DNA of 64,000 nucleotides, taken from a virus. A program made the translations under genes and the position numbers. Below, one piece after another: positions 786-64,000 of the stretch (its first letter is position 1; each line of letters starts with the position of its first letter). The notes under the pieces were generated by a model. That model did no database searches. It had not been told where the DNA came from and worked only from the letters and a program-made list of their open reading frames with translations. The stretch lies in IMG/VR virus record IMGVR_UViG_3300035698_011202, positions 1-64,000 of that record; one strand, 5' to 3'.

Positions 786-1002
786 CAGGTTTTAGTCTCC
801 CGTTTTTAAGAATAGGTAAGTTAGGGCCATGTACTCGCTGTAACGCTTTACGTATTTTACGCAAAGCTGTGGTGCGGTTTACATCAAACATCTCAGCTAC
901 GGCTGTGTAACTTTCCGTTTGAATGTACTGGTTAAGATACAAGCGTTCTTCCATATCTGCTTTTGCAAACACAGCAGGGGTCATTAGTTTGGTTATACTC
1001 AT
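778..1002 (-). CDS. Small HTH DNA-binding protein
   Basis: SYTAVAEMFDVNRTTALRKIRKAL helix-turn-helix; starts at the TTGACGATG motif; overlaps the holin start. Confidence 0.6.
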   Translation of the reverse strand: MSITKLMTPAVFAKADMEERLYLNQYIQTESYTAVAEMFDVNRTTALRKIRKALQRVHGPNLPILKNGRLKPDE

Positions 1003-1014
1003 CGTCAATATTTC

Positions 1015-1560
1015 CTAAGCTATTCTGTTCTTTAGCCAACCAAACAAAAACGTTTCGTTAGTTTCAGTTTTTTCACTGATGCGAATGTAGTATTCGCCCT
1101 GCAAACAATTTAAAGCTTTTAGCAGTACCGCCTCACCGTGGAGTGTACGTTGACGTAGAAAACTACGTAATGCTTCCTGAGTTTTCTCACCCATGATGCC
1201 ATCCGGTGTTATGTCAAGATAACTGCGCTGCTTTTTATTCAGCGAGTTTAAGGCGCGTTGTAACCAACGTATAGCCGTGACTTCACCGCAATTTATACCG
1301 CTATCAAATACTTCTTCTGCAATGCGTGAGGACTCTTTTTCGATTAGGTCCAGTTGTGGTTGATACCAATACTGCTCAGCGTAGATTTGCACTGCTTCGT
1401 AGCGGGGCATACGTTCCATATCCCCGTAGTACCCAAACTCTCTAGCGACCGCTATGGTAATACCAAAATTGGTTTCACCGCCTGCGTCATCAGGGTTGTT
1501 GACATAACCGCCTTCTTTTTGAATAACGGAATCAATAAACTTTTCTAGTACAGCCCGCAT
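1015..1560 (-). CDS. Endolysin, glycoside hydrolase family 108 with peptidoglycan-binding domain
   Basis: EGGYVNNPDDAGGETNFGIT catalytic motif, DGIMGEKT, terminal GWLKNR. Confidence 0.92.
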   Translation of the reverse strand: MRAVLEKFIDSVIQKEGGYVNNPDDAGGETNFGITIAVAREFGYYGDMERMPRYEAVQIYAEQYWYQPQLDLIEKESSRIAEEVFDSGINCGEVTAIRWLQRALNSLNKKQRSYLDITPDGIMGEKTQEALRSFLRQRTLHGEAVLLKALNCLQGEYYIRISEKTETNETFLFGWLKNRIA

Positions 1561-1949
1561 TATCTCTCACTCACTTGACTAACTTTACGGATAGCTTCAA
1601 CCATTTCGGGTAAAAGTTTTGACAGACCTGATATGCCTGATTCGGTACTATTAGATATTTTTTCTAAATGGGTTAGCCGTTTATTAATAGACTCTAAAAT
1701 TAATTCGTTACGCTGCTCGGTACGTAACATAAACGAAGTAAAGTGAGACTCAATCTCAGGCTTGTCGTAATAATTTTTAGCAATGTTTTGTTTAAAATCC
1801 ATATGCTCTTTCACTATCAAGGTAATAGCTGATGTATTCTTATCAATATTTCCAGTCACGCTTCGGAGAATAAATATACCAATCGTTGTCAACACACCTG
1901 AAAGTGCGACAAGAACTGTCAGTATCGATGTAAAGGCTTGGGTATCCAT
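1560..1949 (-). CDS. Single-TM membrane protein, possible holin/antiholin
   Basis: N-terminal TM helix plus coiled coil, coupled to the endolysin. Confidence 0.5.
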   Translation of the reverse strand: MDTQAFTSILTVLVALSGVLTTIGIFILRSVTGNIDKNTSAITLIVKEHMDFKQNIAKNYYDKPEIESHFTSFMLRTEQRNELILESINKRLTHLEKISNSTESGISGLSKLLPEMVEAIRKVSQVSER

Positions 1950-1950
1950 T

Positions 1951-2259
1951 TTACTGCTCCAATAATAAAACTAGCTCTAGCTGGGCGCTGATATAAGCAC
2001 CTAACGCGACAATAGTTTTTAGGTTTTCTAATTCACAGCCGAGCACATTCAACGGGTGAGGTTGGTGCTGGGGCAGTTTTAGTGCTAAGGGTCTAATATA
2101 AAATTGGTTCGAGTGAAGGACGTTGTTGTGATACCTACGCGTTAATTTCTCACAGTCAGGGGTGAGGCGAGGGGATTTAGTAATGGACGTTATGGGGAGT
2201 GCTAACACAACACAATTGCCATCGATAACCAGACAATTGTGTTGTATTTTAACAGGCAT
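1951..2259 (-). CDS. Hypothetical protein
   Basis: ORF fills the gap upstream of the lysis genes; no recognisable motif. Confidence 0.35.
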   Translation of the reverse strand: MPVKIQHNCLVIDGNCVVLALPITSITKSPRLTPDCEKLTRRYHNNVLHSNQFYIRPLALKLPQHQPHPLNVLGCELENLKTIVALGAYISAQLELVLLLEQ

Positions 2260-2316
2260 CGTTTAACAGGCATAGCCATCTCCATCACTCATCGTCAACC
2301 ACAGGAATTTTAAAAG

Positions 2317-2344
2317 ACAATAGCCCAGTTATGGGCTATTGGTC
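2317..2344 (-). terminator. Hairpin, probable terminator after the tail module
   Basis: GACAATAGCCCA-GTTA-TGGGCTATTGGTC inverted repeat followed by T-run on the minus strand. Confidence 0.55.
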
Positions 2345-2361
2345 AATATAGCGAGGCTGTT

Positions 2362-15100: not shown

Positions 15101-15928
15101 CCTGTAGTCAGCATTCATCGTAGGTAGACCGTCAATCTGGTCACCAATCACACCTACCACATGCAACATCGCTGTACTTGGGTGATACTCGAAGCTAGGG
15201 GTGTCGTATTTTTTATCTGAAGCCCCATAGCTGCTCAACTTACGTGTAACCAGCTCGTACCCACGCCAAATTATCGTATCAAAGATGTCTTCATCATCAC
15301 TGTTAGTGTTTTTAGTCAGCGTAATTTCGTACTGGTCACCCGTATTTGAACGCACAGGTAACTCAAACTTTAGGCTTCGGGCAAAACCACTTTGAGGGGT
15401 TTTACCTTTTATCCTAATCGCTTTAGTTTCAGAGTAACCACCACCAATTTTTGACAGCACCACCGTCAAAGTAACTTCGTGCTCTTTCACGCCGTCTTTT
15501 GAGTTGCGGTAAAGTGCTTGTGCAACTACCTGAACGTCAAGCTGGTCCCAACCATCAGGAATACTAGGCGTGGTTTTACTAATGGGCGCACCATGAACAA
15601 CTTCCTGACCTACCGTTTGATTTGAGGCGGTGCCGTCAAACAAATATCTAATCGGCGTTTGACCGTCTTCACTCTCAGCAGCGGTTAACGGAGTGCCTGA
15701 TTCAAAACGAATGAGTAGTTCACTTTCCTCAAAGTTAGGTTTGCCTTGGCTGTCAAAAATAGGTGTGTCATCAAGGTAGATGTGGTTTAGCTTTTCTTCC
15801 GCAGATTCACCCACAATGCCACCAATCTGTCCTTGAGCAATACCCATCACAAACTCGAAAGCGTCTGTAGAAAACAGATTGCTTCTAGCATTGCTTGGGC
15901 CGCCGCCTCCGCTGCCTTTAAATCTCAT
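12188..15928 (-). CDS. Tail tip / host specificity protein (lambda J-like)
   Basis: GLLCRVPSNYNP..TY....WDG, TDNPFW and RYTFN motifs, FN3-like domains; starts at TTGACGATG. Confidence 0.88.
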   Translation of the reverse strand: MRFKGSGGGGPSNARSNLFSTDAFEFVMGIAQGQIGGIVGESAEEKLNHIYLDDTPIFDSQGKPNFEESELLIRFESGTPLTAAESEDGQTPIRYLFDGTASNQTVGQEVVHGAPISKTTPSIPDGWDQLDVQVVAQALYRNSKDGVKEHEVTLTVVLSKIGGGYSETKAIRIKGKTPQSGFARSLKFELPVRSNTGDQYEITLTKNTNSDDEDIFDTIIWRGYELVTRKLSSYGASDKKYDTPSFEYHPSTAMLHVVGVIGDQIDGLPTMNADYRGLLCRVPSNYNPRTKTYDESSAWDGLYAPERFPTDNPFWIVNELILNEVFGVISYNPNVKVNKYSVYDKAKYADGYNAFSNAKDLQNPNTSETGVARYTFNAVLSDRMSGMEFINKILATTFSVILENDDGEIEILTDMPTVPVAFITAEMAVSTSSESPFSYSYSSTSARINAVSTSFIDKDSEYATQQLPEIRNQDAIDRHGLNVTEFVSLGTTNAWEAERKALVFLVAGQTETESINFVMPLSGVQFQVYDVVAIVDPVMGHGVSGRVVSNDTFSLTVRDPIYFAESGLYSLTLQGLTEDFDATITIKDTEVGLPLRKFTLSRPYPAASSLGDYPVVHIGNRARSDKQIGFPKLYRITSIEPTDDTGLELFSISAVEFNSEKHTEADLLKQATQPQYSFQLLAPLKRVTNLVVVNESIVDTLQGTQVSAWISWDEQEDRQFGTSYRVEVFSNGTSIGRVVNTAENFTEIKGLQFAEYEFRVTAERSGTKSAVTSLTYELGRVTAADLIEENALPLMYGSFKNGILKAYADINYVVGSVTSLPVALLTGGYLSSVTFSIFDDSDGNNTFLFNTVQTQPNLILTASQFKEASQQVFLPSKLIVRVAFHDFFDERYPALAVNDHILTIEAVQALITNVVVTEQTSAFGKYLITWTDDSANYEFTLLTLTGNILKKQTLTSAEVTLETLSAGTYTFTIQPVSSDLGYGKIFTQTLVVLQKDTSDVAPNTTSSNGTITVTPPVVESKFDTYEFKTSTSDNFEIAKPVGSNTSLSFGNVIKDQIYHVWYRLVTDNNRNTTWRLTSALGTEQILYTWTAYAEDAVGTNISTSAGELTWQGLSSGHTTAQAIITDASIYTWLPLTEGETIQMVLLSDNGNYFRNNTGALKSITANIFINGVAAYDTSEYKYKWTNEGRVVYVTTSGDYVSLSPSTNLFAADGEDPQGLNFKTIKVDFTDVANGADLNLTCTVTNI

Positions 15929-15955
15929 CGTCAATCCTCATTGTATTTTTACAGC

Positions 15956-17507: not shown

Positions 17508-17996
17508 TTAGACTCTCACCGATGAAAACTCAGGCTGCGCGTATCGACGAGGTGGGAAAACAATTTGGTTTCCGTCACTCGGCATTCTTAGCTCAGCCGT
17601 TATCATATGCTCTGTAATATTCGTTACATGCGACACAATAAAGACTCGTCGAGTATAGGTGCCCAACGATAGTTCTTGAGGTAGCACTCGGTACTCAACA
17701 ACATCTGCGCCTTCTAGGATACGTCTTGACACGTAGTAGGATAGGGCACCATCTTGGTTAGGTAAGTTAAGTTTAGGGCGAGATACTTCACCTGAACTGT
17801 TTTGCTGAAAACCAGCAATAAGAAAAGGATTACTTGTCCACGTTTCACCTAGCCACGTTATAGTTGGACCATCGGTAAGGCGAAAATGAATAGGCGTAGA
17901 ATCTAAGTCTAGGATTTTTATATATAGGAATTTTATACGTTCAGAGGACGTAAGAGATTTAATCTCAGTGGTTAAACTGGGCGAAAGTGTTTTCAT
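17508..17996 (-). CDS. Minor tail protein (lambda L-like)
   Basis: W.G..W...PF...GF.....G..SRPKL pattern; position before K-like genes; starts at TTGACGATG. Confidence 0.7.
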   Translation of the reverse strand: MKTLSPSLTTEIKSLTSSERIKFLYIKILDLDSTPIHFRLTDGPTITWLGETWTSNPFLIAGFQQNSSGEVSRPKLNLPNQDGALSYYVSRRILEGADVVEYRVLPQELSLGTYTRRVFIVSHVTNITEHMITAELRMPSDGNQIVFPPRRYAQPEFSSVRV

Positions 17997-18042
17997 CGTC
18001 AACTCCAAATTTTATGCTTGGAGTTTAATACAAAGCGCAGAC

Positions 18043-18069
18043 AAAAAAAACCCCGCACTAGGCAGGGTT
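18043..18069 (-). terminator. Intrinsic terminator of the predicted sRNA
   Basis: AACCCTGC-CTAGT-GCGGGG followed by T8. Confidence 0.85.
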
Positions 18070-18123: not shown

Positions 18124-18151
18124 ATATTATCATAATGATAACGTGCGTCAA
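18124..18151 (-). promoter_or_regulatory. Sigma70-like promoter for the sRNA with an overlapping 7-1-7 palindrome
   Basis: TTGACG-16 bp-(TGn)TAATAT; TTATCAT-A-ATGATAA at 18127-18141. Confidence 0.6.
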
Positions 18152-45697: not shown

Positions 45698-45708
45698 GAA
45701 AATTGACG

Positions 45709-47211
45709 ATGAGTTATACAAGTAAGACCTTTAACCAATTACAGGCTTCAGTTTTGAAGTCTATGGATGATTTAAATCTAGCACCTATAGAAATACTTTC
45801 GTTGACGAAGAACGCAGCTATGAATGCTGCCCAGCGTTACGCAGAAAAGTATTTGGAGGTATCGCTACGTCAAGGCGATCCTTCTCAGATGAAGCGGCTC
45901 CGAGCGTTTATGGATTCAGCTGGAAACTGTTGTTATGACTTCAATATAGTGGGGAGTCCCCACTCAGAAGAGGATGGTGAGTATCGGTTCACTTATAGCG
46001 TTGATTTTGACCGTCAGGACGGCCTGTACCTGCAAAAACGCTCAAAGCGAGGTGTCAGCCTTGGTCGAGTACTTGGTGACTTTGACGACGGCCTGATGCT
46101 CAATCTTCAATTCGATGGCGATACGTATATTCGCAGCTATCACGAGGTAGAAGCATTAAAAACTGAGGGTATGCCCCAAAGCGAGTTGATCAAGTACTTT
46201 GTCAACAAATTCAAAGCACAATCAAAAAATGCTTTTGTGTATTTCACAGACGTTAACATCGACCAACATTACAAATCTTTGTCTCAAGTGCGTGACTTAG
46301 ATACCTGTTTGAGTCGTAAAAACTCACACTACCATCGCAAGGTCAATGGCACCTATTACCACCCATTGCGAACATTAAACAAGTCGCCAAATGTCCGATT
46401 GGCTTTACTATCCAACACTCATCACAGCGAGTGGGAGGACGGCCAGTACCCCTTTGTGGGTCGTTGTTTAGTCAAGATGGACGAGCTAGGTAAGGTCACG
46501 GGTCTATCTCGTTACTATGGTCACGAAAAGTTCAGTCGTGATTCGCTAAGTCAAGCGTTTAACACTAGAGAAGGAGTGCAAGGCGGGGTATTTAAGGCGG
46601 TATATGATGACGAAAACGAATTGATTTTGTTTTTTGCTGACCAACTAACCTCAGATTCTGAAGAGAAAAATGCGGTTTCGTGGATAGATAATCCTAGTCC
46701 TAGATGGTTCGATATTCATGTAGGCCGCGAGTTTTCGTCCCTCAAGAATCGCAAAGATTTACTGGTAATGGGTAATACCAATCGCAGTTTTGGGGTCACG
46801 CCCAGCTTCGATGGCAGGGAAGTGACTACTTGTAGCAATGCTAAGTATGTGCGTAACGACAGACCTAAGCCCGATAAGTATAGCGACTACGTTTATAGCC
46901 TTGAGTATGGCGTAATCAGGGCCAGTAACTACGATTTGACGTTCAATATTGCGCTAAACGACTTTGTAGTAGACGGCGACATACTACACCGCTCAAATAC
47001 GGGGGATGGCATTACGCATTATCACGTAGAGAAAAACTTGTACGTACAAACTATCTTTCACGATTGGGTGTTACGTGACGAAGTGATACTTTTCTTTGTC
47101 GCATATAGCAGTTGCTATGTCCCGATAGATAATGACCTTGGCATCATATACGGTCAAGAAATGGGCACACGAGAACTTGAAGAATTAATAGCTGACACGA
47201 TTGCAGCATAG
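45709..47211 (+). CDS. Paralog of the upstream SCM-motif protein
   Basis: DTCLSR...HP...SPN...GR...YYGHE...FFAD aligns with upstream ORF; starts at TTGACGATG. Confidence 0.75.
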   Translation: MSYTSKTFNQLQASVLKSMDDLNLAPIEILSLTKNAAMNAAQRYAEKYLEVSLRQGDPSQMKRLRAFMDSAGNCCYDFNIVGSPHSEEDGEYRFTYSVDFDRQDGLYLQKRSKRGVSLGRVLGDFDDGLMLNLQFDGDTYIRSYHEVEALKTEGMPQSELIKYFVNKFKAQSKNAFVYFTDVNIDQHYKSLSQVRDLDTCLSRKNSHYHRKVNGTYYHPLRTLNKSPNVRLALLSNTHHSEWEDGQYPFVGRCLVKMDELGKVTGLSRYYGHEKFSRDSLSQAFNTREGVQGGVFKAVYDDENELILFFADQLTSDSEEKNAVSWIDNPSPRWFDIHVGREFSSLKNRKDLLVMGNTNRSFGVTPSFDGREVTTCSNAKYVRNDRPKPDKYSDYVYSLEYGVIRASNYDLTFNIALNDFVVDGDILHRSNTGDGITHYHVEKNLYVQTIFHDWVLRDEVILFFVAYSSCYVPIDNDLGIIYGQEMGTRELEELIADTIAA

Positions 47212-47222
47212 GAAAATTGACG

Positions 47223-48602
47223 ATGACATTTAAAACAGAATTAAAATTGATTGCTAACGAATCCAAGGTATTTCACAACACGGACGCTTTTTTACCCAGT
47301 GTGATATTGCCACAGATATGCCGCCATATCCGAGGCCATAACAGTGTTGGCGAAAAGAATTTCCTTAAAAACTGGCTTGAGCCAGCGTTCAAGAAGCTTG
47401 GCCTTGAGTTCACCAACGATGCCTTTGGTAACTATTACGTGCAAATAAAAGGCCCGCAAATGGAGCGAGTGCTGCACGTAGGCCACTTAGATACGGTCAG
47501 TAGTGCCAGTAATCTCAAGAAATACCAGAAAGTAATTATCGACAAAGATAACTTTATGACGCTAGACCATGCTCACTATGCAAGTCTCAAAGGGGCTGAT
47601 GCTTCTATGGGTGTGCTTGGCGCTGATGACGGCTCGGCTATCGCTGTAATGTTGTATTTGATGGCTAACGGAGTATCGGGCTGTTTTTTACTAACCAAAG
47701 CAGAAGAAATTGGATGCCTTGGTGCAAACTACATCGTAAAAAATCACCCTGAGTTCTTAGAAAAGTTCGATATTGCGCTAGAAGTTGACCGAGCAGACAC
47801 CTTCGAGCTTATCGCTGAGCAAAGTACAGGTAAGTGCGCCAGCCGTGGATTTACAAAAACACTAGCGGATGCAATCGGCATGAAGCACGAGCATTCGGAT
47901 GGAGGAATTATTACTGACCTTGGGAATTTTAATAACCTAATCAAAGAGGGAATTAACATAGCCGCTGGCTATTTATTTCAGCATTCCAGTGATGAGATTC
48001 AAGACATGCTTTACATTGAGATATTAGCTAAGCAGATGGCTAAGCTAGATTATGGCTCGTTGGTTGTATCCCGAAAAGTCACTGATTTAGGTGACACAGG
48101 TTGGGGTAACTATGGGGGTTATGGTGGTGGTTACAGTCGCTCCAAAAGCAGCTCAGGATTACACAAAAACTCTGGGTACAGGTACGACGATTATGAAGAT
48201 TACGATTACGATGGTTTTTTCTCTTCTAAACAGAAAAGCAAGACTGAGGATGTTAAAGGTATTTGCCCTGCGTTGCTGCAAAAAGACCCTGCGTTAGAAA
48301 CAGGGTTGAGCATAGATGACTTGACTTATGACGAGAAAACCGACCTGTACCAGAACCTTTCAGATTCTGATTGGTATTTTATGCTCAACGCTGATGCGAG
48401 GCGCGAGCTGATGCGTTTCGAATATCCAATTATAACGGGTGTTACGTGTGACAAATTACCCTATGCCGAACTCGTTGACTTTATTGCGTCAGACCCAGAG
48501 GCATTTGCTAACTATTTCATAGACCAAAAGCTCGACCTAGCGGTAGTTGGCGCGGATGATTATTTGCAAGATATTAACGATATATACGAAGGAAAATTAT
48601 AA
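47223..48602 (+). CDS. Zn-dependent peptidase, M28/M20-like
   Basis: HLDTV, LGADD, EEIG, EVDR, GY..QHS..E metal ligands; starts at TTGACGATG. Confidence 0.85.
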   Translation: MTFKTELKLIANESKVFHNTDAFLPSVILPQICRHIRGHNSVGEKNFLKNWLEPAFKKLGLEFTNDAFGNYYVQIKGPQMERVLHVGHLDTVSSASNLKKYQKVIIDKDNFMTLDHAHYASLKGADASMGVLGADDGSAIAVMLYLMANGVSGCFLLTKAEEIGCLGANYIVKNHPEFLEKFDIALEVDRADTFELIAEQSTGKCASRGFTKTLADAIGMKHEHSDGGIITDLGNFNNLIKEGINIAAGYLFQHSSDEIQDMLYIEILAKQMAKLDYGSLVVSRKVTDLGDTGWGNYGGYGGGYSRSKSSSGLHKNSGYRYDDYEDYDYDGFFSSKQKSKTEDVKGICPALLQKDPALETGLSIDDLTYDEKTDLYQNLSDSDWYFMLNADARRELMRFEYPIITGVTCDKLPYAELVDFIASDPEAFANYFIDQKLDLAVVGADDYLQDINDIYEGKL

Positions 48603-48850: not shown

Positions 48851-48897
48851 TTAACTAACTGAGTGGGGAGTCCCCACTCAAAAACTAGGAATTGACG

Positions 48898-49149
48898 ATG
48901 AAACTAAATCACACCACTCCTGCTGTTGGTAGAAAATCCACGCGTGAAAATAAAGGTAGCACTCAGCTTTTTTTAGTGTTGTTTACTAATTTTAATGGGA
49001 TGAAAACCCAAGAAATTGTCAAAGCTTTTAGTTTTGACGAGCTACATTCTTGGATTGAGAAGTTCAAAGCGGATTATGGCCCCCGTATGACTCATAGTAT
49101 CCAACATATTAACAAAGCGCGTATAGCTGACAAAATAAATATTGCTTAA
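48898..49149 (+). CDS. Hypothetical protein
   Basis: Starts at TTGACGATG after palindrome. Confidence 0.65.
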   Translation: MKLNHTTPAVGRKSTRENKGSTQLFLVLFTNFNGMKTQEIVKAFSFDELHSWIEKFKADYGPRMTHSIQHINKARIADKINIA

Positions 49150-49180
49150 ATTAACACCACTCAAAAACTAGGAATTGACG

Positions 49181-49684
49181 ATGACATTAGCAGAACAAAT
49201 ATTAGATAGACTTTTCTCTTTAGACGAGCAGCAAAAGCAAATCCTCGAATTAATTAAGAACTTACCAGCGTCTAGGGACGCTGCATTTGAAGCTGAATTA
49301 CAAGCGATAGTCGAGCCTACGGTTTTACCGCTTATTGAGTTACCTGTGACGTTGCATGAAGCACCTGTGGCTCTTAAAAACTCCCGGCTACTTTTGAGCG
49401 ACATGACTAAAGGCACTAACGCCGCACTTGGCTTGCGATTGCTAAAAAAACACCCTGAAGTATTGGGTAGGATTATAAGGTTGCGTAGAGAAGGCTACTT
49501 GAACGATGACGTCTTTGAGTTTCTTAGCTCTGATTTTATAAATATTCACAAGGAATATCATATTGGAGCCATTATCACAGCGGCAACTCAGGTCAGGTTC
49601 ATGGTAGGACAGACCAAAAACCTAAAAGCCACGGCTGCTTATAGGCGCTTCATCAAAGATTGTGAAGCGGGTATTAAAGTATGA
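49181..49684 (+). CDS. Hypothetical protein
   Basis: Starts at TTGACGATG. Confidence 0.65.
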   Translation: MTLAEQILDRLFSLDEQQKQILELIKNLPASRDAAFEAELQAIVEPTVLPLIELPVTLHEAPVALKNSRLLLSDMTKGTNAALGLRLLKKHPEVLGRIIRLRREGYLNDDVFEFLSSDFINIHKEYHIGAIITAATQVRFMVGQTKNLKATAAYRRFIKDCEAGIKV

Positions 49685-51157: not shown

Positions 51158-51184
51158 CTCACCCAAAACAACTTGGAATTGACG

Positions 51185-51679
51185 ATGACTTTTTATACAA
51201 AAGACGAACTGTATTGTAAATATGTAGAACTTATCCCTTCAGAAGAAGTGCATAACACGTTTATGCCTCTAATGGAAAAGTACCCTCGACTAATAGGACT
51301 GGACATGAAGACTTGTAATCTCATGGACCAGTTTCGTGACGACAAAAACCCTTCTGGCTATGGCATGGCAGATTGCTATTTGGTTGGTCGTAGCGAAGAG
51401 CAAAAAACAATGTTGTTTGTGTTTGGCTCCAAGACTGAAATAGTTGACGTAAGTGTCGCGTCTAACTATTTTCAAGGGTCTATGAGTGTGGCGGCATTAA
51501 GTGTGGCGTGTCAGATTTTGTGGCACAATCATCTGGCGGCATTTGCAGATTCTATGGGACAACATCTGCTTTCTTCTTGGGCAGCAGATATGTATTATGC
51601 TCTTAAAGATGTTGTTTACCTTGAAGCTCTAGGCTTATCAGACAACGACAGGTCAGCTATTGCTGGCTTCTTAGATTAA
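51185..51679 (+). CDS. Hypothetical protein, weak resemblance to ArdB/KlcA antirestriction fold
   Basis: YFQGSMSVAALSVACQIL...YYALKD...DRSAIAGFLD resembles the ArdB-type C-terminus; starts at TTGACGATG. Confidence 0.5.
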   Translation: MTFYTKDELYCKYVELIPSEEVHNTFMPLMEKYPRLIGLDMKTCNLMDQFRDDKNPSGYGMADCYLVGRSEEQKTMLFVFGSKTEIVDVSVASNYFQGSMSVAALSVACQILWHNHLAAFADSMGQHLLSSWAADMYYALKDVVYLEALGLSDNDRSAIAGFLD

Positions 51680-51695
51680 AAAATTGGAATTGACG

Positions 51696-51848
51696 ATGAA
51701 ACAATCATATGTATGGGTGCCCTCAAAAAACTTCTCTTCATTACTTAGCCTTTGTATCTATTCGATACCGCTGGGCGAGTACATTTTACGCCGTGAAGCT
51801 GTCGTAGACGAAACAGGTCAAGTGACACTAGCGGAGGATTTCGCATGA
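51696..51848 (+). CDS. 50-aa hypothetical protein (not in ORF track)
   Basis: Starts at TTGACGATG; ATGA overlap with next ORF. Confidence 0.65.
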   Translation: MKQSYVWVPSKNFSSLLSLCIYSIPLGEYILRREAVVDETGQVTLAEDFA

Positions 51849-52208: not shown

Positions 52209-52254
52209 CGTTAAGCGTATTATTTTAGTAATTAACTACAATTAGGAATTGACG

Positions 52255-52434
52255 ATGAGAAATCATTTTGAACAAAACGAGTACGTCCGACTTGTTAACA
52301 GTCCCAGTAAAGTCTACGTGGTAATAGTCCAAAACGGGTCTAGGGTTTCGGTTAAACGTGAATACTACCAGACCCCAGAGGTCGTTGCGTTACGAAGCGA
52401 GATTATTGACCGAAGTTTATTGGAGCGCCTGTAA
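52255..52434 (+). CDS. Small SH3-like hypothetical protein
   Basis: Starts at TTGACGATG; F...EYVRL.....KVYVV. Confidence 0.6.
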   Translation: MRNHFEQNEYVRLVNSPSKVYVVIVQNGSRVSVKREYYQTPEVVALRSEIIDRSLLERL

Positions 52435-54610: not shown

Positions 54611-54625
54611 AATTTGGAATTGACG

Positions 54626-55321
54626 ATGATGAATCAAACAAGACAGTTGCCTTCGTATGGGTTACATACAAGCGATCAAGGTATTACCTACTTATTTCAA
54701 GACCTGTGCCCCTATGGTTGGGAGTTTTTAGGACTAAAAAATAGCCGTTCAAATCTGAGCGTCAAACACTTAAAAAACCAATGCCCCCACCAAATTAATA
54801 TGTACTTAGCCCAGCGTGTGCTTAGCAAAAAGGTTTGGGATTCGTTTTGCAGAATTATAAACGATCCTTTAGTCAGAGCTATGCTGCCTTTGCCTAACGG
54901 TAGGACGTATTCTTTTGACCAAAACTCAATAGAAAATTCAACCGAATGGTTTAGCTGCTTAGAGCGATTAGCGTCACCGTTACATACAGGTGTAAAGCCT
55001 TTTTGGGTAGACTCAAATCAAGCTATGGCTAGAAAGCTTACGCTAACAAATATACAGCCTTTGGTCTTAATGGATGTCAAAGCTGAGAATACATTGGATG
55101 TAAGAAGGCTACATGACCTAAATAAAACGTGTCCTAGAACCTTAATTATTAGCTGTACCGAGCAGCTAGTATTAACGCCTTCGGTAGAAGTTATTCAAAC
55201 ACAGCTAGAATCGTTAATATCCTTAAAAGATATGATTTCATTGCCATTAGAGCATATTGGTTCCTATTTAATTGCAGAGCATTGCAAGAGTACCCTTCAA
55301 TTAGAATCTATTACTAACTAG
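54626..55321 (+). CDS. Hypothetical protein
   Basis: Starts at TTGACGATG. Confidence 0.65.
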   Translation: MMNQTRQLPSYGLHTSDQGITYLFQDLCPYGWEFLGLKNSRSNLSVKHLKNQCPHQINMYLAQRVLSKKVWDSFCRIINDPLVRAMLPLPNGRTYSFDQNSIENSTEWFSCLERLASPLHTGVKPFWVDSNQAMARKLTLTNIQPLVLMDVKAENTLDVRRLHDLNKTCPRTLIISCTEQLVLTPSVEVIQTQLESLISLKDMISLPLEHIGSYLIAEHCKSTLQLESITN

Positions 55322-58401: not shown

Positions 58402-58418
58402 GACTACGGAAATTGACG

Positions 58419-59228
58419 ATGAAAATAGAATGTATTGATGGCAACAACGTGTTGCGCCGGTTAGTTGAGGCTGAGGGTGTAACGGTCACCAAGTCTTTGT
58501 ACAATATTGCTTGCATGGACTCCCCCGACCTACAAATTATATGGGTGTGGGATGGTAAAGACGGCAACAAAGTCCGTCGAGAAATCTTTCCCGACTATAA
58601 AAAGAAAGCTGAGGGCACAGGTACGCCAGATAGCTTTTACGAATTTATGAACAACTTCAGAACATTGCTCAATCACAGTAATTGTTTGCAGATACGCGTA
58701 GACGGCTTTGAGGGTGATGATGTTATCGCTCAGATTGTAGCGTTACGCGATGCCGGTCAGAAGATAGAAATCAACTCTAACGACCAAGACTTCAGGCAGT
58801 TAGTTAGCAATAACGTCACTTTAGAGTACATGGCACCTAAGTTTTCAGGCTACTCAGCATCCGACATGCGCTTAGCTAAGACTTTAGTAGGCGATAGTGC
58901 GGATAACATAAAAGGATTGCCTCGTTTTGGGTTGAAATCCTTCGAGAAACTTACGCCTACGCAGCGTGATAGCTGGGTAGATTTGTTAGAAGACGATGCT
59001 ATCCAATTAAGCCCCGCTCACCTTGAAGGTATGCCGGATGCTTTGGGGCTGTCAAAAACCCTCTCGCAAGTCACCTTAGACAACATCGATTTGCTACGCG
59101 CTTACTACACCATCATTGGGTTTATGCCTATCCCTATAGACGTGTTTGCAAGTAGCTTTACGATGGGTGACGGAGACACCAAAAAAGGTGGTGAGCTTCT
59201 TAATGACATGTTCATGCTAGAAATTTAA
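58419..59228 (+). CDS. 5'-3' exonuclease / flap endonuclease
   Basis: IDGNN, WDG, R.EIFPDYK, FEGDDVIA, SNDQDF, LVGD.ADNIKG; starts at TTGACGATG. Confidence 0.92.
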   Translation: MKIECIDGNNVLRRLVEAEGVTVTKSLYNIACMDSPDLQIIWVWDGKDGNKVRREIFPDYKKKAEGTGTPDSFYEFMNNFRTLLNHSNCLQIRVDGFEGDDVIAQIVALRDAGQKIEINSNDQDFRQLVSNNVTLEYMAPKFSGYSASDMRLAKTLVGDSADNIKGLPRFGLKSFEKLTPTQRDSWVDLLEDDAIQLSPAHLEGMPDALGLSKTLSQVTLDNIDLLRAYYTIIGFMPIPIDVFASSFTMGDGDTKKGGELLNDMFMLEI

Positions 59229-59272
59229 GTGCTGAGTGGGGACTCCCCACTCAATTACAATTTGGATTGACG

Positions 59273-62158
59273 ATGATAAGCAAAATTAACGAATACACAG
59301 GGTTGGTTGAACAGCTAGTTGACGCTAGAAATATGGAATATCTGAGTATCGCTCTTGACCGTATCAAAGAACAGCAGGGTAAAGCTTTCGTAGGTTTTGA
59401 TATTGAGACTGAGGATAGCCAGCGTCACGATGGACTCAATCGGCTAATGAACGTAGATGCTCATAGCCTACGCTACAAAAAACCCACTAAGTTAATGTTC
59501 GACATTCCTAGAACTAACGTCACAGGGTTCTCGTTCTACATAAAAGGCGAAGATATTGTTTACTACGTGAACACTAAGCATTTTGACGTAGAAAACAGAA
59601 TACCTTTTGCGCTCACCAAATGTTTTATAGAAGAGTTACGAGACAATGCCACTTTAATTATCCATAACTATACGTTTGAAAGAACTATGGTGCTTGCGGA
59701 TTGGGGTATTGACCTTGGCAAGAACTATATCGATACGCTTCAAATGGCCGTGTCAGCTTACAACGATGACCAGTATGATATTGCGGCTTTTAAGCAGCGA
59801 AATCTTGGTGAGATAGCTAAACTGGTGCCTGAAATAAAGAAGCATTTTAAAGGATTTGACCCTAAAGTGCCGCTTAGTGCTGAGCAGTTCGAGGTGGTTA
59901 ACAAGGTCGTATCTAAAGACTCCAAAGCCGATCATAGTTACAACGGTTATGTACGGTCTATGAATTACGGTTATGGTTTAAAAGTCTGTACCGAGCGTTT
60001 GTTTGGTTACAAGCAAGACTCGTTTGAGGACTGCCTACAAGGTAAGGCTCACATGGGTATGCTAACAGGTGAAGAAGTGTTGCATTATGGTGCTGATGAC
60101 TCCTATTGGTGTGTCAGGTTGTTCGATTGGCTTTTAGAGTTTATGAGTAAGACTAACCCAGCTGTCATACAAACCTTCTTTGAGCAAGAGAACCCAATGC
60201 CTTACATCTTTAGTGATTGTTGGTCTAGGGGTTGGAGAGTTAACCGTGAGGCGATTGAGAGAAGAAACATTCAAGAGCGTGTTAACTATGTAAGGGCATT
60301 ACGAGATTTAGCGGAATTATTGAACGGTTACACGTACATATTTCCTGATGGAAACCCAGCCATGCTAGAAAAACAGCCCAAATGGTATAGCGGCAAAGAG
60401 GGTGAGTCCTTTCAAAAGTACCGCGAGAAGTTAGAGTTTTTCAAAAGTGGCTACCAGTTATTGCTGCAAGAGCAAGGTGTAACCACGCTAACCAACGAGC
60501 GCCTAGAGTCTAATGAAATGTTAGGCTTTGACCTTTGCCAATTATCCAGCGGTAGTGTCCCCGCAGCTTGGCGGGTAGAAATGAAGAACGCGCCAGTGAA
60601 GAAGGACTTAGATAAGCGCCCCAATCTTATGCACTATATGGTACAGCGGGTGCTGTTACATGATTTATGCAATCTCCCGTTCATTTATATAAAAGGTAAA
60701 GTGTCTACGAACGGCGAGGCACGAGGTAAAATGATGCAAAAGGCTGAAGACCTAGCTTCTATGCCTAATGCGTGGCTTGAGTATTGGGATAAATACAAAT
60801 CACTGACCCAACTAACGCCTATGGAGCGCCAGCTAACGGCTGAACATCTGTCAAACGAGTACGATGCAGACAAGGTGCAAAACATCATCCGTTGTCTGAA
60901 TACGTTGGTTGGTATTGACCAGCGCATTAAGCTATTCATTACTAATTACAGGTGCATGATTGATCCTAATACCGACCGCATTCACCCTGTACTAAGCTCC
61001 AAGCTAAACACTAGGCGTATGGCCTCACAGAACCCTAATGCGATGCAGTTAGCCAAGCGAGGCGACTCTGCGTACATTCGCGGGTTCTTCCAAGCAAACC
61101 ACGATGACCACCTAATTATCGCGGTTGACTGGTCACAGGTAGAGCTAGTGTTGATAGGAGAAGAGTCCTCAGACCCTAACTTTGCTAAAGCATTTGGTCA
61201 GTTACCTTACGAAGACTTACACACGGCAGCGGCAAAATCCGCGTTAGAAGTATTTTATCCTAATTTTAGTGACGAATTATTTATGGGTTTGAAGATGGGA
61301 GATGCCAGCGCCATCCAAACTATTCAAATAGATTTTCCCAAGGTGTTAATTAACCCTGTAGAAAATGAGCCGCTAGAACCTAGCTATGCCTTTAAGTTTT
61401 GGCGTAGCGAAGCGGGGAAGCCTAGTAACTTTGGTTACTGGTATTCAGGCTCACTGATGACGGTGCAAGAAAAGCTAGGTTGGACTAGCAAGGAAATGTG
61501 GGCCGGTACTGAGAACTACCGAATGGTGTTTGAGATAGCAGAGCATTGGCGGCTCAAGGTTATTGAGAATGTTAAGAATAAGGGTATCACTACACTTAGA
61601 GACAATCACCAGAGAGTACGTTATGAAGCTACTGATGAGTGGGTTTATGACTTTGTAGCTAAGTTCTCAGCCCACGGAAATAACGATTTATCTATGTTTG
61701 GTTATCACTGTGCGAAGAAGATACAACGTCGTGCCCACAACCAAGCAGTCAACGCAAAAATACAAGGTGGGTGTGCCACGCTAGCCAAGCGCAGCATTAT
61801 ACCTCTGCATAAAGAAATACACGAAGAAGGTAAGTGGGACGCAGAATTTTTGATGCCTATTCACGATGAATTAGTGTTTAGCGCCCACCACAGTCAGGCT
61901 GTAGATTTCTCATATCGTATCTTAGAGGTCATGTGTGACCACCCAACCGTAGTCAAGAACTTGAAGCTAGACGGCACCATTTCTATTGGTAAAACCCTAG
62001 AGCCATTTCACCCTGTCAACGCCCCGTATGGGCAGATAGAGCTTGATGAAGCGCCCTTTATTGATGGTGTTATACCTAAAGAATATGTGAAGAAATCATT
62101 GCCTAGAGAAATTAGACAAAAGGTAGTTGATTACCTAAGAAGAGGCAGTTATGCGTGA
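59273..62158 (+). CDS. polA: Family A DNA polymerase with 3'-5' exonuclease
   Basis: FDIET, HNYTFE, YGADD; TRRMASQNPNAMQ, DWSQVEL, KPSNFG, QGGCA, IHDEL; starts at TTGACGATG. Confidence 0.95.
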   Translation: MISKINEYTGLVEQLVDARNMEYLSIALDRIKEQQGKAFVGFDIETEDSQRHDGLNRLMNVDAHSLRYKKPTKLMFDIPRTNVTGFSFYIKGEDIVYYVNTKHFDVENRIPFALTKCFIEELRDNATLIIHNYTFERTMVLADWGIDLGKNYIDTLQMAVSAYNDDQYDIAAFKQRNLGEIAKLVPEIKKHFKGFDPKVPLSAEQFEVVNKVVSKDSKADHSYNGYVRSMNYGYGLKVCTERLFGYKQDSFEDCLQGKAHMGMLTGEEVLHYGADDSYWCVRLFDWLLEFMSKTNPAVIQTFFEQENPMPYIFSDCWSRGWRVNREAIERRNIQERVNYVRALRDLAELLNGYTYIFPDGNPAMLEKQPKWYSGKEGESFQKYREKLEFFKSGYQLLLQEQGVTTLTNERLESNEMLGFDLCQLSSGSVPAAWRVEMKNAPVKKDLDKRPNLMHYMVQRVLLHDLCNLPFIYIKGKVSTNGEARGKMMQKAEDLASMPNAWLEYWDKYKSLTQLTPMERQLTAEHLSNEYDADKVQNIIRCLNTLVGIDQRIKLFITNYRCMIDPNTDRIHPVLSSKLNTRRMASQNPNAMQLAKRGDSAYIRGFFQANHDDHLIIAVDWSQVELVLIGEESSDPNFAKAFGQLPYEDLHTAAAKSALEVFYPNFSDELFMGLKMGDASAIQTIQIDFPKVLINPVENEPLEPSYAFKFWRSEAGKPSNFGYWYSGSLMTVQEKLGWTSKEMWAGTENYRMVFEIAEHWRLKVIENVKNKGITTLRDNHQRVRYEATDEWVYDFVAKFSAHGNNDLSMFGYHCAKKIQRRAHNQAVNAKIQGGCATLAKRSIIPLHKEIHEEGKWDAEFLMPIHDELVFSAHHSQAVDFSYRILEVMCDHPTVVKNLKLDGTISIGKTLEPFHPVNAPYGQIELDEAPFIDGVIPKEYVKKSLPREIRQKVVDYLRRGSYA

Positions 62159-62390
62159 GTTTGGAATCTTAAAACAAGACCTAAAAGACGTTTTAGAGAT
62201 ACAAGAATATCAGCAGCGTTTGCTCACAAAAACAGTTTTGATAAAACGGGTACGTGATATAGTAGACAGGGCAGGGGCACTCGAATCGGCGTTAAGGCAA
62301 CTCGACCCTCACCACCCTTTAATTACTACGAGAGTAAAAAATGATGACCGCACAATCAAAAGTAGTCCAACTAAGACCCCGACCTTTTGA
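62151..62390 (+). CDS. Hypothetical protein
   Basis: GAGG RBS, coupled. Confidence 0.5.
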   Translation: MREFGILKQDLKDVLEIQEYQQRLLTKTVLIKRVRDIVDRAGALESALRQLDPHHPLITTRVKNDDRTIKSSPTKTPTF

Positions 62391-62934
62391 GTATCTAAAA
62401 GATAAGTCTTTTATTACCTTTGATACTGAAACCACAGGTGTATCTGGTACTAGTGAGATTTGCGAGATTTGCTTAATCGATGGCGACACAGGCAACGTAA
62501 TGATTAACACGTTGGTCAAGCCTGTTGGGATGATGCACCCCAAGGCGCAAGAAATACACGGGATTATGCCTCACGAATTAGTCGATGCACCTGACTGGCT
62601 AGAAGTGGAGCAGCAGATTAGAGCCATTTCACAAGGTCGAGTCGGCATTGCGTACAACGCTAACTTCGATCTAAAGATGATGGTGCAATCTTGCAATGTA
62701 AGAGGTGTAAAAACCGACATTTCTTTTGGGTTTGACAATTTCTTTTGCGCCATGGTTGAGTATTCTAAGCGAATTAAAATAATGGATTTCTTCCGTAAAT
62801 CTCACAAGTGGGTAAAGCTAAGTCAAGCGTGTGAGTTAGAAGGCATTGCTGTAAACGAAACGCTTCACCGAGCTAAAGCTGATGCGATGTTAACCCACTT
62901 GTTAGTGCGTAAATTAATAGACGAGCTAGAATAA
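62341..62934 (+). CDS. DEDDh 3'-5' exonuclease (DnaQ-like)
   Basis: FDTETTG, IHGI, YNANFD, HRAKADA. Confidence 0.92.
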   Translation: MMTAQSKVVQLRPRPFEYLKDKSFITFDTETTGVSGTSEICEICLIDGDTGNVMINTLVKPVGMMHPKAQEIHGIMPHELVDAPDWLEVEQQIRAISQGRVGIAYNANFDLKMMVQSCNVRGVKTDISFGFDNFFCAMVEYSKRIKIMDFFRKSHKWVKLSQACELEGIAVNETLHRAKADAMLTHLLVRKLIDELE

Positions 62935-62935
62935 T

Positions 62936-63127
62936 ATGCTTGCCAGTATGGTTCTTTGGGGTTTCTGTTTAATGTTTCCTATCGCATTTTTTCTAGTTCA
63001 TTTAAAGATGAAGATGGATTGTGAGAAATATAAACAAGACTTCCAAAGGGCTAGACCCCCTATACCGCCCCATGATGACCCGCCACTAGATAGGTTAGAA
63101 ACCTTGAACGACAGGCACCCACTTTAA
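62936..63127 (+). CDS. Small membrane protein
   Basis: N-terminal TM helix, Pro-rich tail. Confidence 0.5.
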   Translation: MLASMVLWGFCLMFPIAFFLVHLKMKMDCEKYKQDFQRARPPIPPHDDPPLDRLETLNDRHPL

Positions 63128-63144
63128 CAACTAGGAAATTGACG

Positions 63145-63762
63145 ATGAGAACACATACCTTGACCCCTTTACCCTTCAAGTACCTTACAGAAGTGACGTA
63201 TAAAAAGCTTTATAACGATATTATTGAGTTCAGAACGCTGTTTGATTTACCTATCGATAAAAAAGTACTAAGCCGTGACGAGCACCGTTTACATTGTGAT
63301 TTATTTTGCGAAGAGCAGGGGGAGTTAGCCCTCGCCACAAACCGAGTAGACAGCATTGATGCAGTAATTGACTCGGTTTACGTATACATGGGCGCACTGG
63401 TTCATATAGGAAAGCCTTGGGAAGTTTTAGTCGCTTGCTCACCTTTAATTGCTTATCCCTTAGAATCGATGCTCGGTTCAGCTGAAGAAATGGGGTTTGA
63501 TTTTGTAGAAGCATGGGATATTGTTCATAGCAGTAACATATCAAAGCTTTGCACAGCGGATAATGTTGACCAAACCTCTCAAGTGTACAAATCTTTAGGG
63601 GTGTCGGTAGTTACTGAGCTAGCTTTCAACAATATCCATAAAGGTGCTAAATATAGGGTTAAAGTTGCTCGTCATTGCAAAGACTATCATGGGAAATTCT
63701 ACCCCCAAGGCAAGGTTTTAAAGAGCATTGGCTATACTCCGGCGATTTTAACGGGTCTGTAG
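63145..63762 (+). CDS. MazG-like nucleoside triphosphate pyrophosphohydrolase
   Basis: EEQGEL...DAVIDSVYV..G, VHSSN.SK, GKVLK; starts at TTGACGATG. Confidence 0.85.
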   Translation: MRTHTLTPLPFKYLTEVTYKKLYNDIIEFRTLFDLPIDKKVLSRDEHRLHCDLFCEEQGELALATNRVDSIDAVIDSVYVYMGALVHIGKPWEVLVACSPLIAYPLESMLGSAEEMGFDFVEAWDIVHSSNISKLCTADNVDQTSQVYKSLGVSVVTELAFNNIHKGAKYRVKVARHCKDYHGKFYPQGKVLKSIGYTPAILTGL

Positions 63763-63789
63763 TACTGAACACAACAATTTGGACTGACG

Positions 63790-64000
63790 ATGACAAACAA
63801 ACTAATTCCGTTAACCGTTTTTACAGCCCATAAGGGTGTTCTAACCAAAACCATAACCAGACAGCATGGAAAGTTCAATGCTGATCCTCCAAAACTTGCG
63901 TCCGGTTTAGCTAGAACAGCGTGGGTCACGCTTGCCGAGCTTCCTAAGTTTATTAAAAGCCTAAAAATCTCTGAGTGTTTTACACTTGGAGTTTTTGATT
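63790..64000 (+). CDS. Partial ORF, possible primase/replication protein N-terminus
   Basis: Start context TTTGGACTGACGATG; MTNKLIPLTVF....GVLTKT; open to the window end. Confidence 0.5.
   Translation, partial: MTNKLIPLTVFTAHKGVLTKTITRQHGKFNADPPKLASGLARTAWVTLAELPKFIKSLKISECFTLGVFD

Follow-up and report, generated by a model that had tools for sequence, protein, structure and literature searches.

A conserved start-codon box in a temperate siphovirus genome and a predicted small RNA complementary to it

Genome and start motif

The sequence studied here, called the window, is the first 64 kb (positions 1 to 64,000) of the 72,231-bp IMG/VR virus record IMGVR_UViG_3300035698_011202, and the whole record is G000 in the genome comparisons. 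One identical sequence, called the box, spans the ribosome site and the start codon in about a third of the genes of this phage, and a predicted small RNA (sRNA) gene in the tail region carries the complement of the box. The phage is a siphovirus of ~80 kb. Its structural genes run leftward from 36.4 kb and include those for the terminase (GpA_ATPase match), a capsid-like protein, and a gpJ-like tail tip protein, and its rightward replication and early genes encode a DUF5906 primase-like protein, a family-A DNA polymerase, a 5'-3' exonuclease, and an SNF2 helicase. The nearest named phage is Pseudoalteromonas phage KB12-38, with a terminase identity of 48%, and a megablast search with 20 kb against named phages gave no match. 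The window contains no tRNA genes, and a PHROGs search with ten early proteins matched one family, which has no known function. The phages of this group are temperate. A tyrosine integrase is encoded in five of five full-length genomes, KB12-38 has an excisionase and an integrase, and two records are classed as proviruses. The G000 record is 89% complete and stops short of where the integrase region would be expected. Among the relatives, G002, G003, G004, G005, and G008 are fragments, G077 is a fragment that is 45% complete, and G078 is complete at 78.7 kb.

The 9-mer TTGACGATG is present in 26 exact copies on the two strands of the window, compared with a mean of 0.41 and a maximum of 2 in 100 dinucleotide-preserving shuffles. 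The whole record has 29 copies (20 forward and 9 reverse), and control patterns read backwards occur 0 and 1 times in it. An earlier note on this DNA, made from the letters and their open reading frames (ORFs), had described the 9-mer as far above chance and placed it at 24 positions; both statements are borne out, every position is correct, and two unlisted copies, at 18079 (+) and 30507 (-), are added here. The conserved unit is longer than the 9-mer and comprises an A-rich stretch, T(T/A)GGA(A/G)(A), TTGACG, and ATG, that is, a GGA/GGAG Shine-Dalgarno (SD) core, a fixed spacer, and the start codon. Twenty-three of the 29 copies open ORFs of at least 50 codons (20 of these in the window), all of them on the coding strand. 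Four others open mini-ORFs of 1 codon (43928), 7 codons (43879), 9 codons (2290), and 16 codons (43316), one is the sRNA gene, and one lies within the capsid gene. The seven starts at which near-variants had been noticed differ from TTGACG at one of six positions (29400, 32600, 34120, 36435, and 63790) or at two of six (36366 and 26571). The 21-mer AAAATTTGGAGATTGACGATG, also remarked on before, occurs exactly three times, as the leaders of the capsid, probable major tail, and tape-measure genes, and eight motif copies in all lie in the structural arm.

The placement of the box was assessed on a curated list of 74 genes. All 23 genes with the exact motif start at least 11 nt from the upstream gene, and none is coupled to it, whereas 27 of the 43 non-motif genes with a defined gap overlap the upstream gene or sit at most 5 nt from it. 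The motif therefore marks the first gene of translationally coupled blocks, as had been proposed. Among the 45 genes with a gap of more than 5 nt, 29 bear the exact motif or a variant with one or two mismatches.

A second repeated element, the 15-nt palindrome GTGGGGA(C/G)TCCCCAC, was found in 10 copies (0.03 expected), in the early region only (window positions 39926 to 59248, plus strand; for example, 41059 to 41069). It usually lies 10 to 25 nt upstream of a box or gene start, following the stop cluster TAATTAACTAA. Different palindromes occupy the same places in relatives, namely, GGGGGCATGTGCCCCC in G001, GGGGGGAATGTTCTCCCC in G006 and G010, and GTGTTCACGTGAACAC in G002, so that the GC-rich palindromes ahead of the box vary from phage to phage and the box itself is constant. 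The palindrome could serve as an operator, fold into an RNA hairpin, or offer a platform to a chaperone.

Since TTGACG matches the -35 consensus at five of six positions, and the boxes stand at module boundaries, often after lineage-specific palindromes, the motif might act as DNA, that is, as a -35 hexamer, as a transcription factor site, or by marking boundaries of recombination or of modules. Only 1 of 113 boxes from four genomes has a -10-like hexamer 16 to 18 nt downstream, which is below the background of 2.6 to 3.3%, and the TTGACG of the box is not acting as a -35 hexamer. All copies outside the sRNA gene are on the transcribed strand, and all but the single intragenic one abut an ATG, neither of which a site in duplex DNA would need. 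The lone reversed copy is embedded in the architecture of an RNA gene. An explanation at the DNA level is extremely unlikely.

A predicted sRNA gene complementary to the box

The reversed copy of the motif lies in a 174-nt gap between two minus-strand tail genes, within a self-contained unit consisting of a sigma70-like promoter, a predicted 74-nt sRNA, and a terminator (Table 1). The predicted sRNA begins with a 9-bp 5' hairpin (18112 to 18091), followed by an open linker of ~21 unpaired bases (18090 to 18070), an 8-bp GC-rich terminator hairpin (18069 to 18049), and T8, with the U tail reaching 18043. In the predicted fold (dG of -25.1; z = -4.1), the seed CAUCGUCAA is unpaired between the 5' hairpin and the terminator. 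Rfam 15 gave no matches in the window, the sRNA included.

The sRNA gene is located between orthologues of the 129-amino-acid (aa) and 162-aa tail genes in G000, G001, G002, G005, G006, G007, G009, G010, and KB12-38, and directly upstream of the 162-aa orthologue in G077, G078, G079, and G080, for which only that side was compared. The position and architecture of the unit are kept in all relatives covering the locus, with equivalent promoters upstream, and the hairpin sequences differ. In the motif-less relatives G073 and G074, there is no gap between the two tail genes that flank the sRNA site elsewhere. Structures were judged on single folds; MAFFT with RNAalifold recovered the terminator only, the 5' hairpins being too different to align. 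All ten distinct sRNA sequences that were folded end in a terminator hairpin (z of -3.2 to -6.6), and nine of the ten have the seed in an open linker, with a clear 5' hairpin in seven of these nine. For the G080 sRNA, the minimum-energy and centroid folds disagree on the 5' hairpin, and in the KB12-38 and G078 sRNAs, the 5' seed bases (CAUAU) are paired into the 5' hairpin and the remainder is open. In the alignment, only the core A-U-(C/U)-G-U-C-(A/G)-A-U is invariant or nearly so, and 4 of 10 terminator pairs are changed on both sides.

The nearest box is 77 nt from the seed and shares its strand, which would suit a function in cis only, in which a late read-through mRNA folds onto the box of the 162-aa gene ~85 nt downstream and the genome-wide motif has some other cause. 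In all lineages, a terminator stands between the seed and that box and a sigma70-like promoter lies directly upstream of the unit. The 162-aa orthologue of G001 has no exact box, and its sRNA gene is nonetheless kept. A cis hairpin would also leave unexplained why 25 to 40 other boxes in each genome track the seed through the four specificity changes described below, and we regard this explanation as very unlikely.

Covariation of seed and box

Complementarity was measured by counts of exact runs and by duplex folding of start regions. In G000, all 31 sites with at least 10 nt of perfect complementarity to the sRNA linker are on the locally transcribed strand, and 25 of them are at the starts of ORFs of at least 40 codons. 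The corresponding fractions at starts are 38/41 in G001, 9/11 in G002, 33/38 in G006, 38/42 in G010, and 13/15 in KB12-38.

The seed changes together with the start motif of its own genome, and four specificity classes can be told apart by sequence. In the main clade, the box is GGA(A/G)A-UUGACG-AUG (GGAAAUUGACGAUG) and the seed is (C/U)AUCGUCAAUUUCC or (C/U)AUCGUCAAUU(U)CC. In G077, the box is UCGACGAUG, present in 13 copies with no UUGACGAUG, and the seed is CAUCGUCGAUUU; 10 of the 13 copies open ORFs of at least 50 codons, and 1 is the sRNA gene. G078 has a box of the GGAUUGACGAUAUG type, with 29 GGATTGA copies, and the seed CAUAUCGUCAAUCC. KB12-38 has boxes of the GGAUUGACAAUAUG type, or GGAUUGAC(A/G), at a variable distance from the AUG, and the seed CAUAUUGUCAAUCC; GGATTGA is found at 29 of its 83 annotated starts and in 37 copies overall, including one in the sRNA gene.

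Sites with at least 11 nt of perfect complementarity number 28, 33, 34, 10, 23, and 14 when a seed is compared with its own genome, versus 0 to 8 between classes. The predicted duplex energies of a seed on the box starts of its own genome are -19.2 kcal/mol for G000 and -20.2 kcal/mol for KB12-38, compared with -15.5 and -11.9 for swapped seeds, approximately -8 for non-box starts, and approximately -5 for reversed seeds. The 15-mer of the KB12-38 seed, searched against viral contigs, gave only chance hits in coding sequence among the matches listed and inspected. The KB12-38 tail protein alone as a query found no relatives, and an alignment including that protein did find some.

Judged from sequence, this covariation is the strongest evidence that the sRNA reads the box. 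The earlier note had suggested a translational operator recognized by an RNA at 18043 to 18118, and the promoter and terminator, the fold, the conserved position, and the seed-box covariation argue for that suggestion. Since four-class covariation is left unexplained by a protein, ribosome, cis, or DNA explanation, each of these alternatives fails on it.

Distribution of the box and host start signals

Among 47 IMG/VR loci found through the terminase, six have 4 to 10 exact copies of the 9-mer per 12 to 22 kb, with terminase identities to the window of 60 to 98%, and the remaining 41 loci and KB12-38 have 0 or 1 copy. Whole records of relatives contain 30 (G001), 26 (G006), 26 (G007), 27 (G009), and 28 (G010) exact copies, and the fragments contain 11 (G002), 21 (G003), 9 (G004), 7 (G005), and 3 (G008); controls gave 0 to 1 copies in every record. 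The motif-bearing contigs recovered by a 15-mer scan are those among the matches listed, and their number is a lower bound. In the distant relatives G072 to G076, GGATTGAC is not enriched, and G072 to G075 show no enriched start motif.

The genome collection gave one box match only, a 3-kb contig in the bin of an Alteromonadaceae metagenome-assembled genome (MAG), where a handful of small contigs carry the box. Of 60 other genomes from this putative host family, 3 have the 14-mer GGAAATTGACGATG, each in a single copy (2 hits for the control). The 10-mer ATTGACGATG occurs 18 to 37 times per 4- to 5-Mb genome in five genomes (3 to 15 for the control); the 72-kb phage record, by comparison, has the 9-mer 29 times. 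At most ~1% of host genes could carry the box. The putative host family does not use the box as a start signal, and by these 14-mer and 10-mer counts, the possibility, raised in the earlier note, that the motif is equally common at host gene starts does not hold for that family.

The box might instead be an optimal initiation region for the host ribosome, kept by selection on expression, with the sRNA either exploiting it or being unrelated to it. It has a GGA/GGAG core 6 to 7 nt from the AUG, and it precedes the most highly expressed structural genes. The 16S rRNA from a genome of the putative host family ends in the ordinary 3' sequence GATCACCTCCTTA, and beyond the SD, no form of the box is complementary to it over more than 7 nt, so that extended SD pairing is excluded. 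Genomes of that family do not use the box. The spacers of sister phages differ (UCGACG, GACGAUAUG, and GACAAU), each with a matching sRNA, which a ribosomal optimum would not predict. On this evidence, the ribosomal explanation is distinctly improbable.

One observation on the 16S rRNA that might be counted in favor of a ribosomal optimum is that positions 917 to 925 of the 16S rRNA of genome G025 (L347) are identical in sense to GAATTGACG, which makes up the core of the box in its GGAATTGACG version, and the sRNA seed is therefore complementary to 8 to 9 nt of 16S rRNA. The chance of finding one given 9-mer in 1.5 kb is ~0.6%, before allowing for the several box forms tried, and the identity may be a coincidence.

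A ProQ/FinO-family protein

Just outside the window, at positions 67344 to 67835 of the record, is a gene for a 163-aa product that matches the ProQ/FinO family (PF04352) at 40.1 bits, against a cutoff of 27. The family is represented in G000, in five of five further full-length main-clade genomes, and in G078, that is, in seven of seven near-complete motif-bearing genomes, and, by annotation, in KB12-38. It was found in none of the five motif-less relatives (G072 to G076) and not in the 45%-complete fragment G077. The box at this gene is no more than a weak variant. A phmmer search with the ProQ-like protein against PDB sequences gave no hits.

The earlier note had offered a phage RNA-binding protein as an alternative reader of the motif. 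The phage does encode such a protein, and that part stands, but this protein more likely serves the sRNA as a chaperone than reads the motif. If a protein (a RegA-like repressor or the ProQ-like one) read the box and the complementary RNA were secondary, this would fit both the co-occurrence of the ProQ/FinO protein with the motif and an identity of the boxes that is stricter than sRNA pairing alone requires. A protein specific for single-stranded UUGACGAUG would have no affinity for the complementary sequence, but it is this complement that an RNA gene preserves and that covaries with the box in four classes. FinO-domain proteins, as described in the part of the review cited here, recognize terminator hairpins and 3' tails rather than sequence motifs (PMC9977716). 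The record gave no match to the RegA family (PF01818), a weak negative, as the control genomes of that search gave none either. We consider it unlikely that a protein is the primary reader.

Candidate decoy RNAs

Several genomes have non-coding units after the primase-like gene that carry sites complementary to the sRNA and may act as decoy (sponge) RNAs. In G000, the candidate in the 634-nt gap after this gene is built from a 30-nt unit repeated four times in tandem, with (T)GACGATGAG or GACGGTGAG in every copy (sites of 9 to 10 nt), followed by a terminator at 39585 to 39613. In G004, a promoter-to-terminator unit at 15100 to 15340 (+; L059) carries ATGACGATGAGA and has no ORF longer than 52 codons. 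This unit contains a 24-nt perfect complement of the G079 sRNA, including the base at which the G079 and G000 sRNAs differ, and the G004 and G079 contigs overlap by ~125 nt. In G006, G009, and G010, a 19-nt perfect site lies between a -35/-10-like pair and a terminator, and it matches the initial U of that seed better than the real AUG boxes do.

The G004 site at 15219 (+) was also considered as a decayed orthologue of the sRNA gene. This was ruled out by its being a sense-strand site after the primase-like gene, inside a promoter-terminator unit, and it is read as a candidate decoy.

Proposed mechanism

The best reading of these observations, to which we give a probability of roughly 0.75, is that a chaperone-assisted phage sRNA blocks the translation of most independently initiated phage cistrons. 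The target would be the box GGA(A/G)(A)-UUGACG-AUG, which spans the SD core, the spacer, and the start codon. The sRNA (18116 to 18043, minus strand) would act in trans and pair with the box through 11 to 17 contiguous bases of the open linker, and a duplex over the SD and AUG would block the binding of the 30S subunit. The first cistron of almost every coupled block would be off at once, as would the genes coupled behind it. The ProQ/FinO protein probably grips the terminator hairpin and U tail of the sRNA and aids pairing, as in FinO-FinP and RocC-RocR. The sequences show directly where the motif lies, the signals and predicted fold of the sRNA gene, the complementarity, the covariation, and the co-occurrence with ProQ; the transcription of the sRNA, the repression, the partnership with the chaperone, the physiological role, and the decoys are inferred. 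Under this mechanism, one seed must fit 25 to 40 boxes, so that the seed and the boxes would freeze each other, and this mutual constraint would account for spacer bases that are identical among phages whose proteins are only ~60% identical.

Because the phages are temperate and the promoter, gene, and terminator form a self-contained unit within the late operon, which is the form expected of a gene expressed from a prophage, the likeliest role is a translational lock in the lysogen. The lock would act on leaky lytic transcripts and perhaps on superinfecting kin, and it would be overcome once lytic mRNAs or dedicated decoy RNAs outnumber the sRNA.

Several points weigh against this interpretation. 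The box is present on the strongest late genes (capsid, major tail, and tape measure), and the lock must therefore be lifted or outrun in lytic growth. The covariation demonstrates that seed and box are coupled and is silent on which of the two drives conservation and on the sign of the effect. Pairing by an sRNA does not usually call for exact identity over 9 to 14 nt at more than 25 sites, and there may be an additional reader of the box, such as the chaperone or the ribosome. The seed types of G002 and G006 start with a U, which places the G of the AUG in a G-U pair. The sRNA transcript and both of its ends are predictions only, and because MAFFT was unable to align the 5' hairpins, formal pair counts are limited to the terminator. 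The sequencing runs listed for this phage are 12 DNA runs, with no RNA run among them. In G001 and KB12-38, the corresponding region yielded no decoy-like sites. Finally, the host assignment depends on one 3-kb MAG-binned contig and on the named host of KB12-38.

In a wider picture, the sRNA with its boxes and decoy-like RNAs, together with the ProQ-like protein, might make up an immunity circuit based on RNA. The chaperoned sRNA of a lysogen would lock almost all independently initiated cistrons of the prophage and also those of superinfecting relatives that share the box. Matched seed-box classes would define immunity groups, as repressor-operator pairs do elsewhere. At induction, the sRNA would be titrated by an early non-coding RNA that carries tandem or perfect decoy sites, and the entire genome would thereby be opened. 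Taken together with a parallel to the start-associated sequences discussed below, this full circuit is speculative, and we think it rather doubtful as a whole.

Comparison with known systems

The box resembles the start-associated sequence (SAS) of Cluster K mycobacteriophages, which is described as a short, asymmetric, start-proximal sequence that includes the SD core and is found in one orientation (Pope et al. 2011, PMC3203893). By the same account, SAS is conserved beyond its pairing with 16S rRNA, is nearly absent from the host, and is kept across diverged relatives; its consensus is GGGATAGGAGCCC, it belongs to actinobacteriophages, and it is placed in the non-structural arm only (PMC3203893). 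A single reversed SAS copy is also covered there (PMC3203893). In papers of 2024 and 2025, the function of SAS is still called unknown (PMC11373665 and PMC12699233). Like SAS as so described, the box is short and asymmetric, lies a few nucleotides from the ATG of a subset of genes in one orientation, contains the SD core, is conserved past its 16S rRNA pairing of at most 7 nt, and is kept across diverged relatives. Lineage-specific inverted repeats often precede both elements (extended SAS [ESAS] there and GC-rich palindromes here). The box is rare in 60 and 5 genomes of the putative host family and may be so in the host. The two differ in sequence, host phylum, and phage lineage, which makes the box an analogue of SAS (GGGATAGGAGCCC) and not a member. 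Unlike SAS as reported, which is confined to the non-structural arm, the box has eight copies in the structural arm and runs into the AUG itself, and a complementary sRNA gene with seed-box covariation is identified for it.

The genome of the Cluster K phage Adephagia contains 15 forward SAS copies and 1 reversed copy, allowing up to two mismatches. The reversed copy is the 10-nt loop CCUCCUAUCC of a 20-bp hairpin (dG of -33.7 kcal/mol; z = -5.1), which is found on the gene strand where 432 non-coding nt separate genes 92 and 93 (record positions ~58,649 to 58,721; L346 28650-28722, +). A second strong hairpin adjoins it, and a 146-nt stretch has a z of -6.4. This hairpin is a candidate anti-SAS RNA, and, coming from one fold in one genome, it is a lead rather than a result. 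An RNA that presents the anti-box may explain the SAS of Cluster K, which has been without a function since 2011.

Mechanistically, the nearest systems are FinO/FinP and RocC/RocR. FinO-domain proteins are described as binding terminator hairpins and 3' tails and as helping sRNAs to pair at the initiation regions of their targets, with FinP-traJ, Inc-repZ, and RocR with four competence mRNAs as examples (PMC9977716). RocR of Legionella, which works with RocC, is a trans-acting RNA with several target mRNAs, all of which have a complementary region in common (PMC9977716). The features shared with these systems, as reviewed there, are a mobile-element or dedicated FinO/ProQ protein, a predicted sRNA that has a terminator hairpin and a 3' tail in all ten sequences, and complementarity of the sRNA to the translation initiation region of the target. 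By this analogy, the ProQ-like protein would bind and stabilize the sRNA, and target translation would fall. Unlike those systems, the one proposed here is phage encoded, has 25 to 40 of the phage's own cistrons as putative targets instead of 1 (FinP) or 4 (RocR), and has as its box an almost invariant SD-spacer-AUG string.

The c4 RNA of P1 and P7 (icd-ant) and the CI RNA of P4 are temperate-phage RNAs that repress by pairing at or near a ribosome site, and differences in specificity among these phages and their relatives come from matched changes in RNA and target. The c4 and CI RNAs are processed from the operon that they control and have one or two targets, whereas the sRNA predicted here would be transcribed from a promoter of its own and have targets throughout the genome. 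RegA of T4 is a protein that represses at the initiation regions of many phage mRNAs through a loose AU-rich consensus. The system proposed here is similar in that one regulator would act on many phage initiation regions and differs in that the proposed reader is an RNA and the sites are nearly identical. AgvB and AsxR of enterohemorrhagic Escherichia coli (EHEC) prophages are prophage anti-sRNAs, or sponge RNAs. The candidate non-coding units with decoy sites are comparable to them, but here decoy and sRNA would share one phage. Literature searches limited to one open-access library returned no paper on a phage sRNA complementary to a genome-wide start motif.

If the proposed mechanism is correct, a single small RNA gates the translation of ~60% of the phage's independently initiated cistrons, which would add a layer of lysis-lysogeny or immunity control beyond repressor-operator logic. 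Phage FinO/ProQ proteins, which are mentioned without a mechanism in the part of the review cited here (PMC9977716), would gain a clear job. The four natural seed-box classes are ready-made compensatory mutations and could serve as orthogonal translational switches.

Box sites and other features of the window

The coordinates of the boxes, the sRNA unit, and the candidate decoy are given in Table 1.

Table 1. Features of the start-motif system in the 64-kb window
Feature	Coordinates	Strand	Remark
Box, start of 74-aa gene	1000..1008	-	Exact copy
Box opening 9-codon mini-ORF ahead of 102-aa gene (ATG at 2259)	2290..2298	-	Exact copy
Box, start of 1246-aa gpJ-like tail tip gene	15926..15934	-	Exact copy
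Box, start of 162-aa tail gene, directly downstream of sRNA gene	17994..18002	-	Exact copy
Predicted 74-nt sRNA	18043..18116	-	Ends placed from promoter and terminator
Seed, exact reverse complement of start motif (plus-strand copy)	18079..18087	-	CAUCGUCAA
Sigma70-like promoter of sRNA gene	18124..18151	-	Promoter scan; TTGACG-16-TAATAT, TG before -10
Box, start of 2119-aa tape-measure gene	24923..24931	-	Exact copy
Box, start of 120-aa gene, tail chaperone by position	25601..25609	-	Exact copy
Box, start of 277-aa probable major tail gene	26503..26511	-	Exact copy; function from position only
Variant box, start of 229-aa gene	29398..29406	-	One mismatch, TTTACGATG
Exact 9-mer inside capsid gene	30507..30515	-	Out of frame; no SD/GGA upstream
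Box, start of 403-aa major capsid gene	30988..30996	-	Exact copy
Variant box, start of 392-aa gene	32598..32606	-	One mismatch, TAGACGATG
Variant box, start of 481-aa gene, portal by position	34118..34126	-	One mismatch, CTGACGATG
Candidate decoy (sponge) RNA, 634-nt gap after primase-like gene	39421..39613	+	Putative function
Box, start of 60-aa gene	41619..41627	+	Exact copy
Box, start of 176-aa gene	42723..42731	+	Exact copy
Box opening 16-codon mini-ORF	43316..43324	+	Exact copy
Leader of 567-aa gene	43815..43991	+	Four motif-like boxes (43842, 43876, 43925, 43973)
Box, start of 500-aa gene	45703..45711	+	Exact copy
Box, start of 459-aa gene (weak Peptidase_M28 match)	47217..47225	+	Exact copy
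Box, start of 83-aa gene	48892..48900	+	Exact copy
Box, start of 167-aa gene	49175..49183	+	Exact copy
Box, start of 164-aa gene	51179..51187	+	Exact copy
Box, start of 50-aa gene	51690..51698	+	Exact copy
Box, start of 59-aa gene	52249..52257	+	Exact copy; 17-nt perfect sRNA complement
Box, start of 231-aa gene	54620..54628	+	Exact copy
Box, start of 269-aa 5'-3' exonuclease gene	58413..58421	+	Exact copy
Box, start of 961-aa family-A DNA polymerase gene	59267..59275	+	Exact copy
Box, start of 205-aa gene (PRA-PH/MazG-like)	63139..63147	+	Exact copy; 16-nt sRNA complement
Variant box, start of 1168-aa helicase-like gene	63784..63792	+	One mismatch, CTGACGATG

The copy inside the capsid gene is probably due to chance and outside the system. 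In the leader of the 567-aa gene, the motif copies at 43879 and 43928 are exact, and a site at 43876 is complementary to the sRNA over 17 nt without a mismatch. Between 43821 and 43921 (+), four AAAAC(G/A)GTGTGACACCT repeats alternate with the four motif-like boxes in an iteron- or operator-like arrangement, and one of the boxes in this leader is an ATG-TGA start-stop.

Two further box sites concern small ORFs. The box-led 9-codon mini-ORF (window positions 2259 to 2298, minus strand) ends in a TAA 3 nt before the ATG of the 102-aa gene, and this gene could therefore be controlled via the mini-ORF. A 103-codon ORF at 26571 to 26882 (+) lies on the opposite strand and fills a 373-nt gap within the leftward structural operon; it is preceded by GGAGCGAAAGACGATG, a two-mismatch variant of the box, and may be an inserted gene of its own.

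Two further features of the window are apart from the box. The large terminase has ~147 extra residues (77 to 223; window positions 35704 to 36144, minus strand) that are absent from all ten relatives compared, whose terminases, by tblastn, join residue 76 straight to residue 224 in the same frame. No Pfam domain was found in the extra residues at an E value of <0.001, and either an intein or the insertion of a homing endonuclease may account for them. Downstream of the tail tip genes is a 2681-codon ORF (window positions 3090 to 11135, minus strand), which is translationally coupled to the preceding 344-aa gene.

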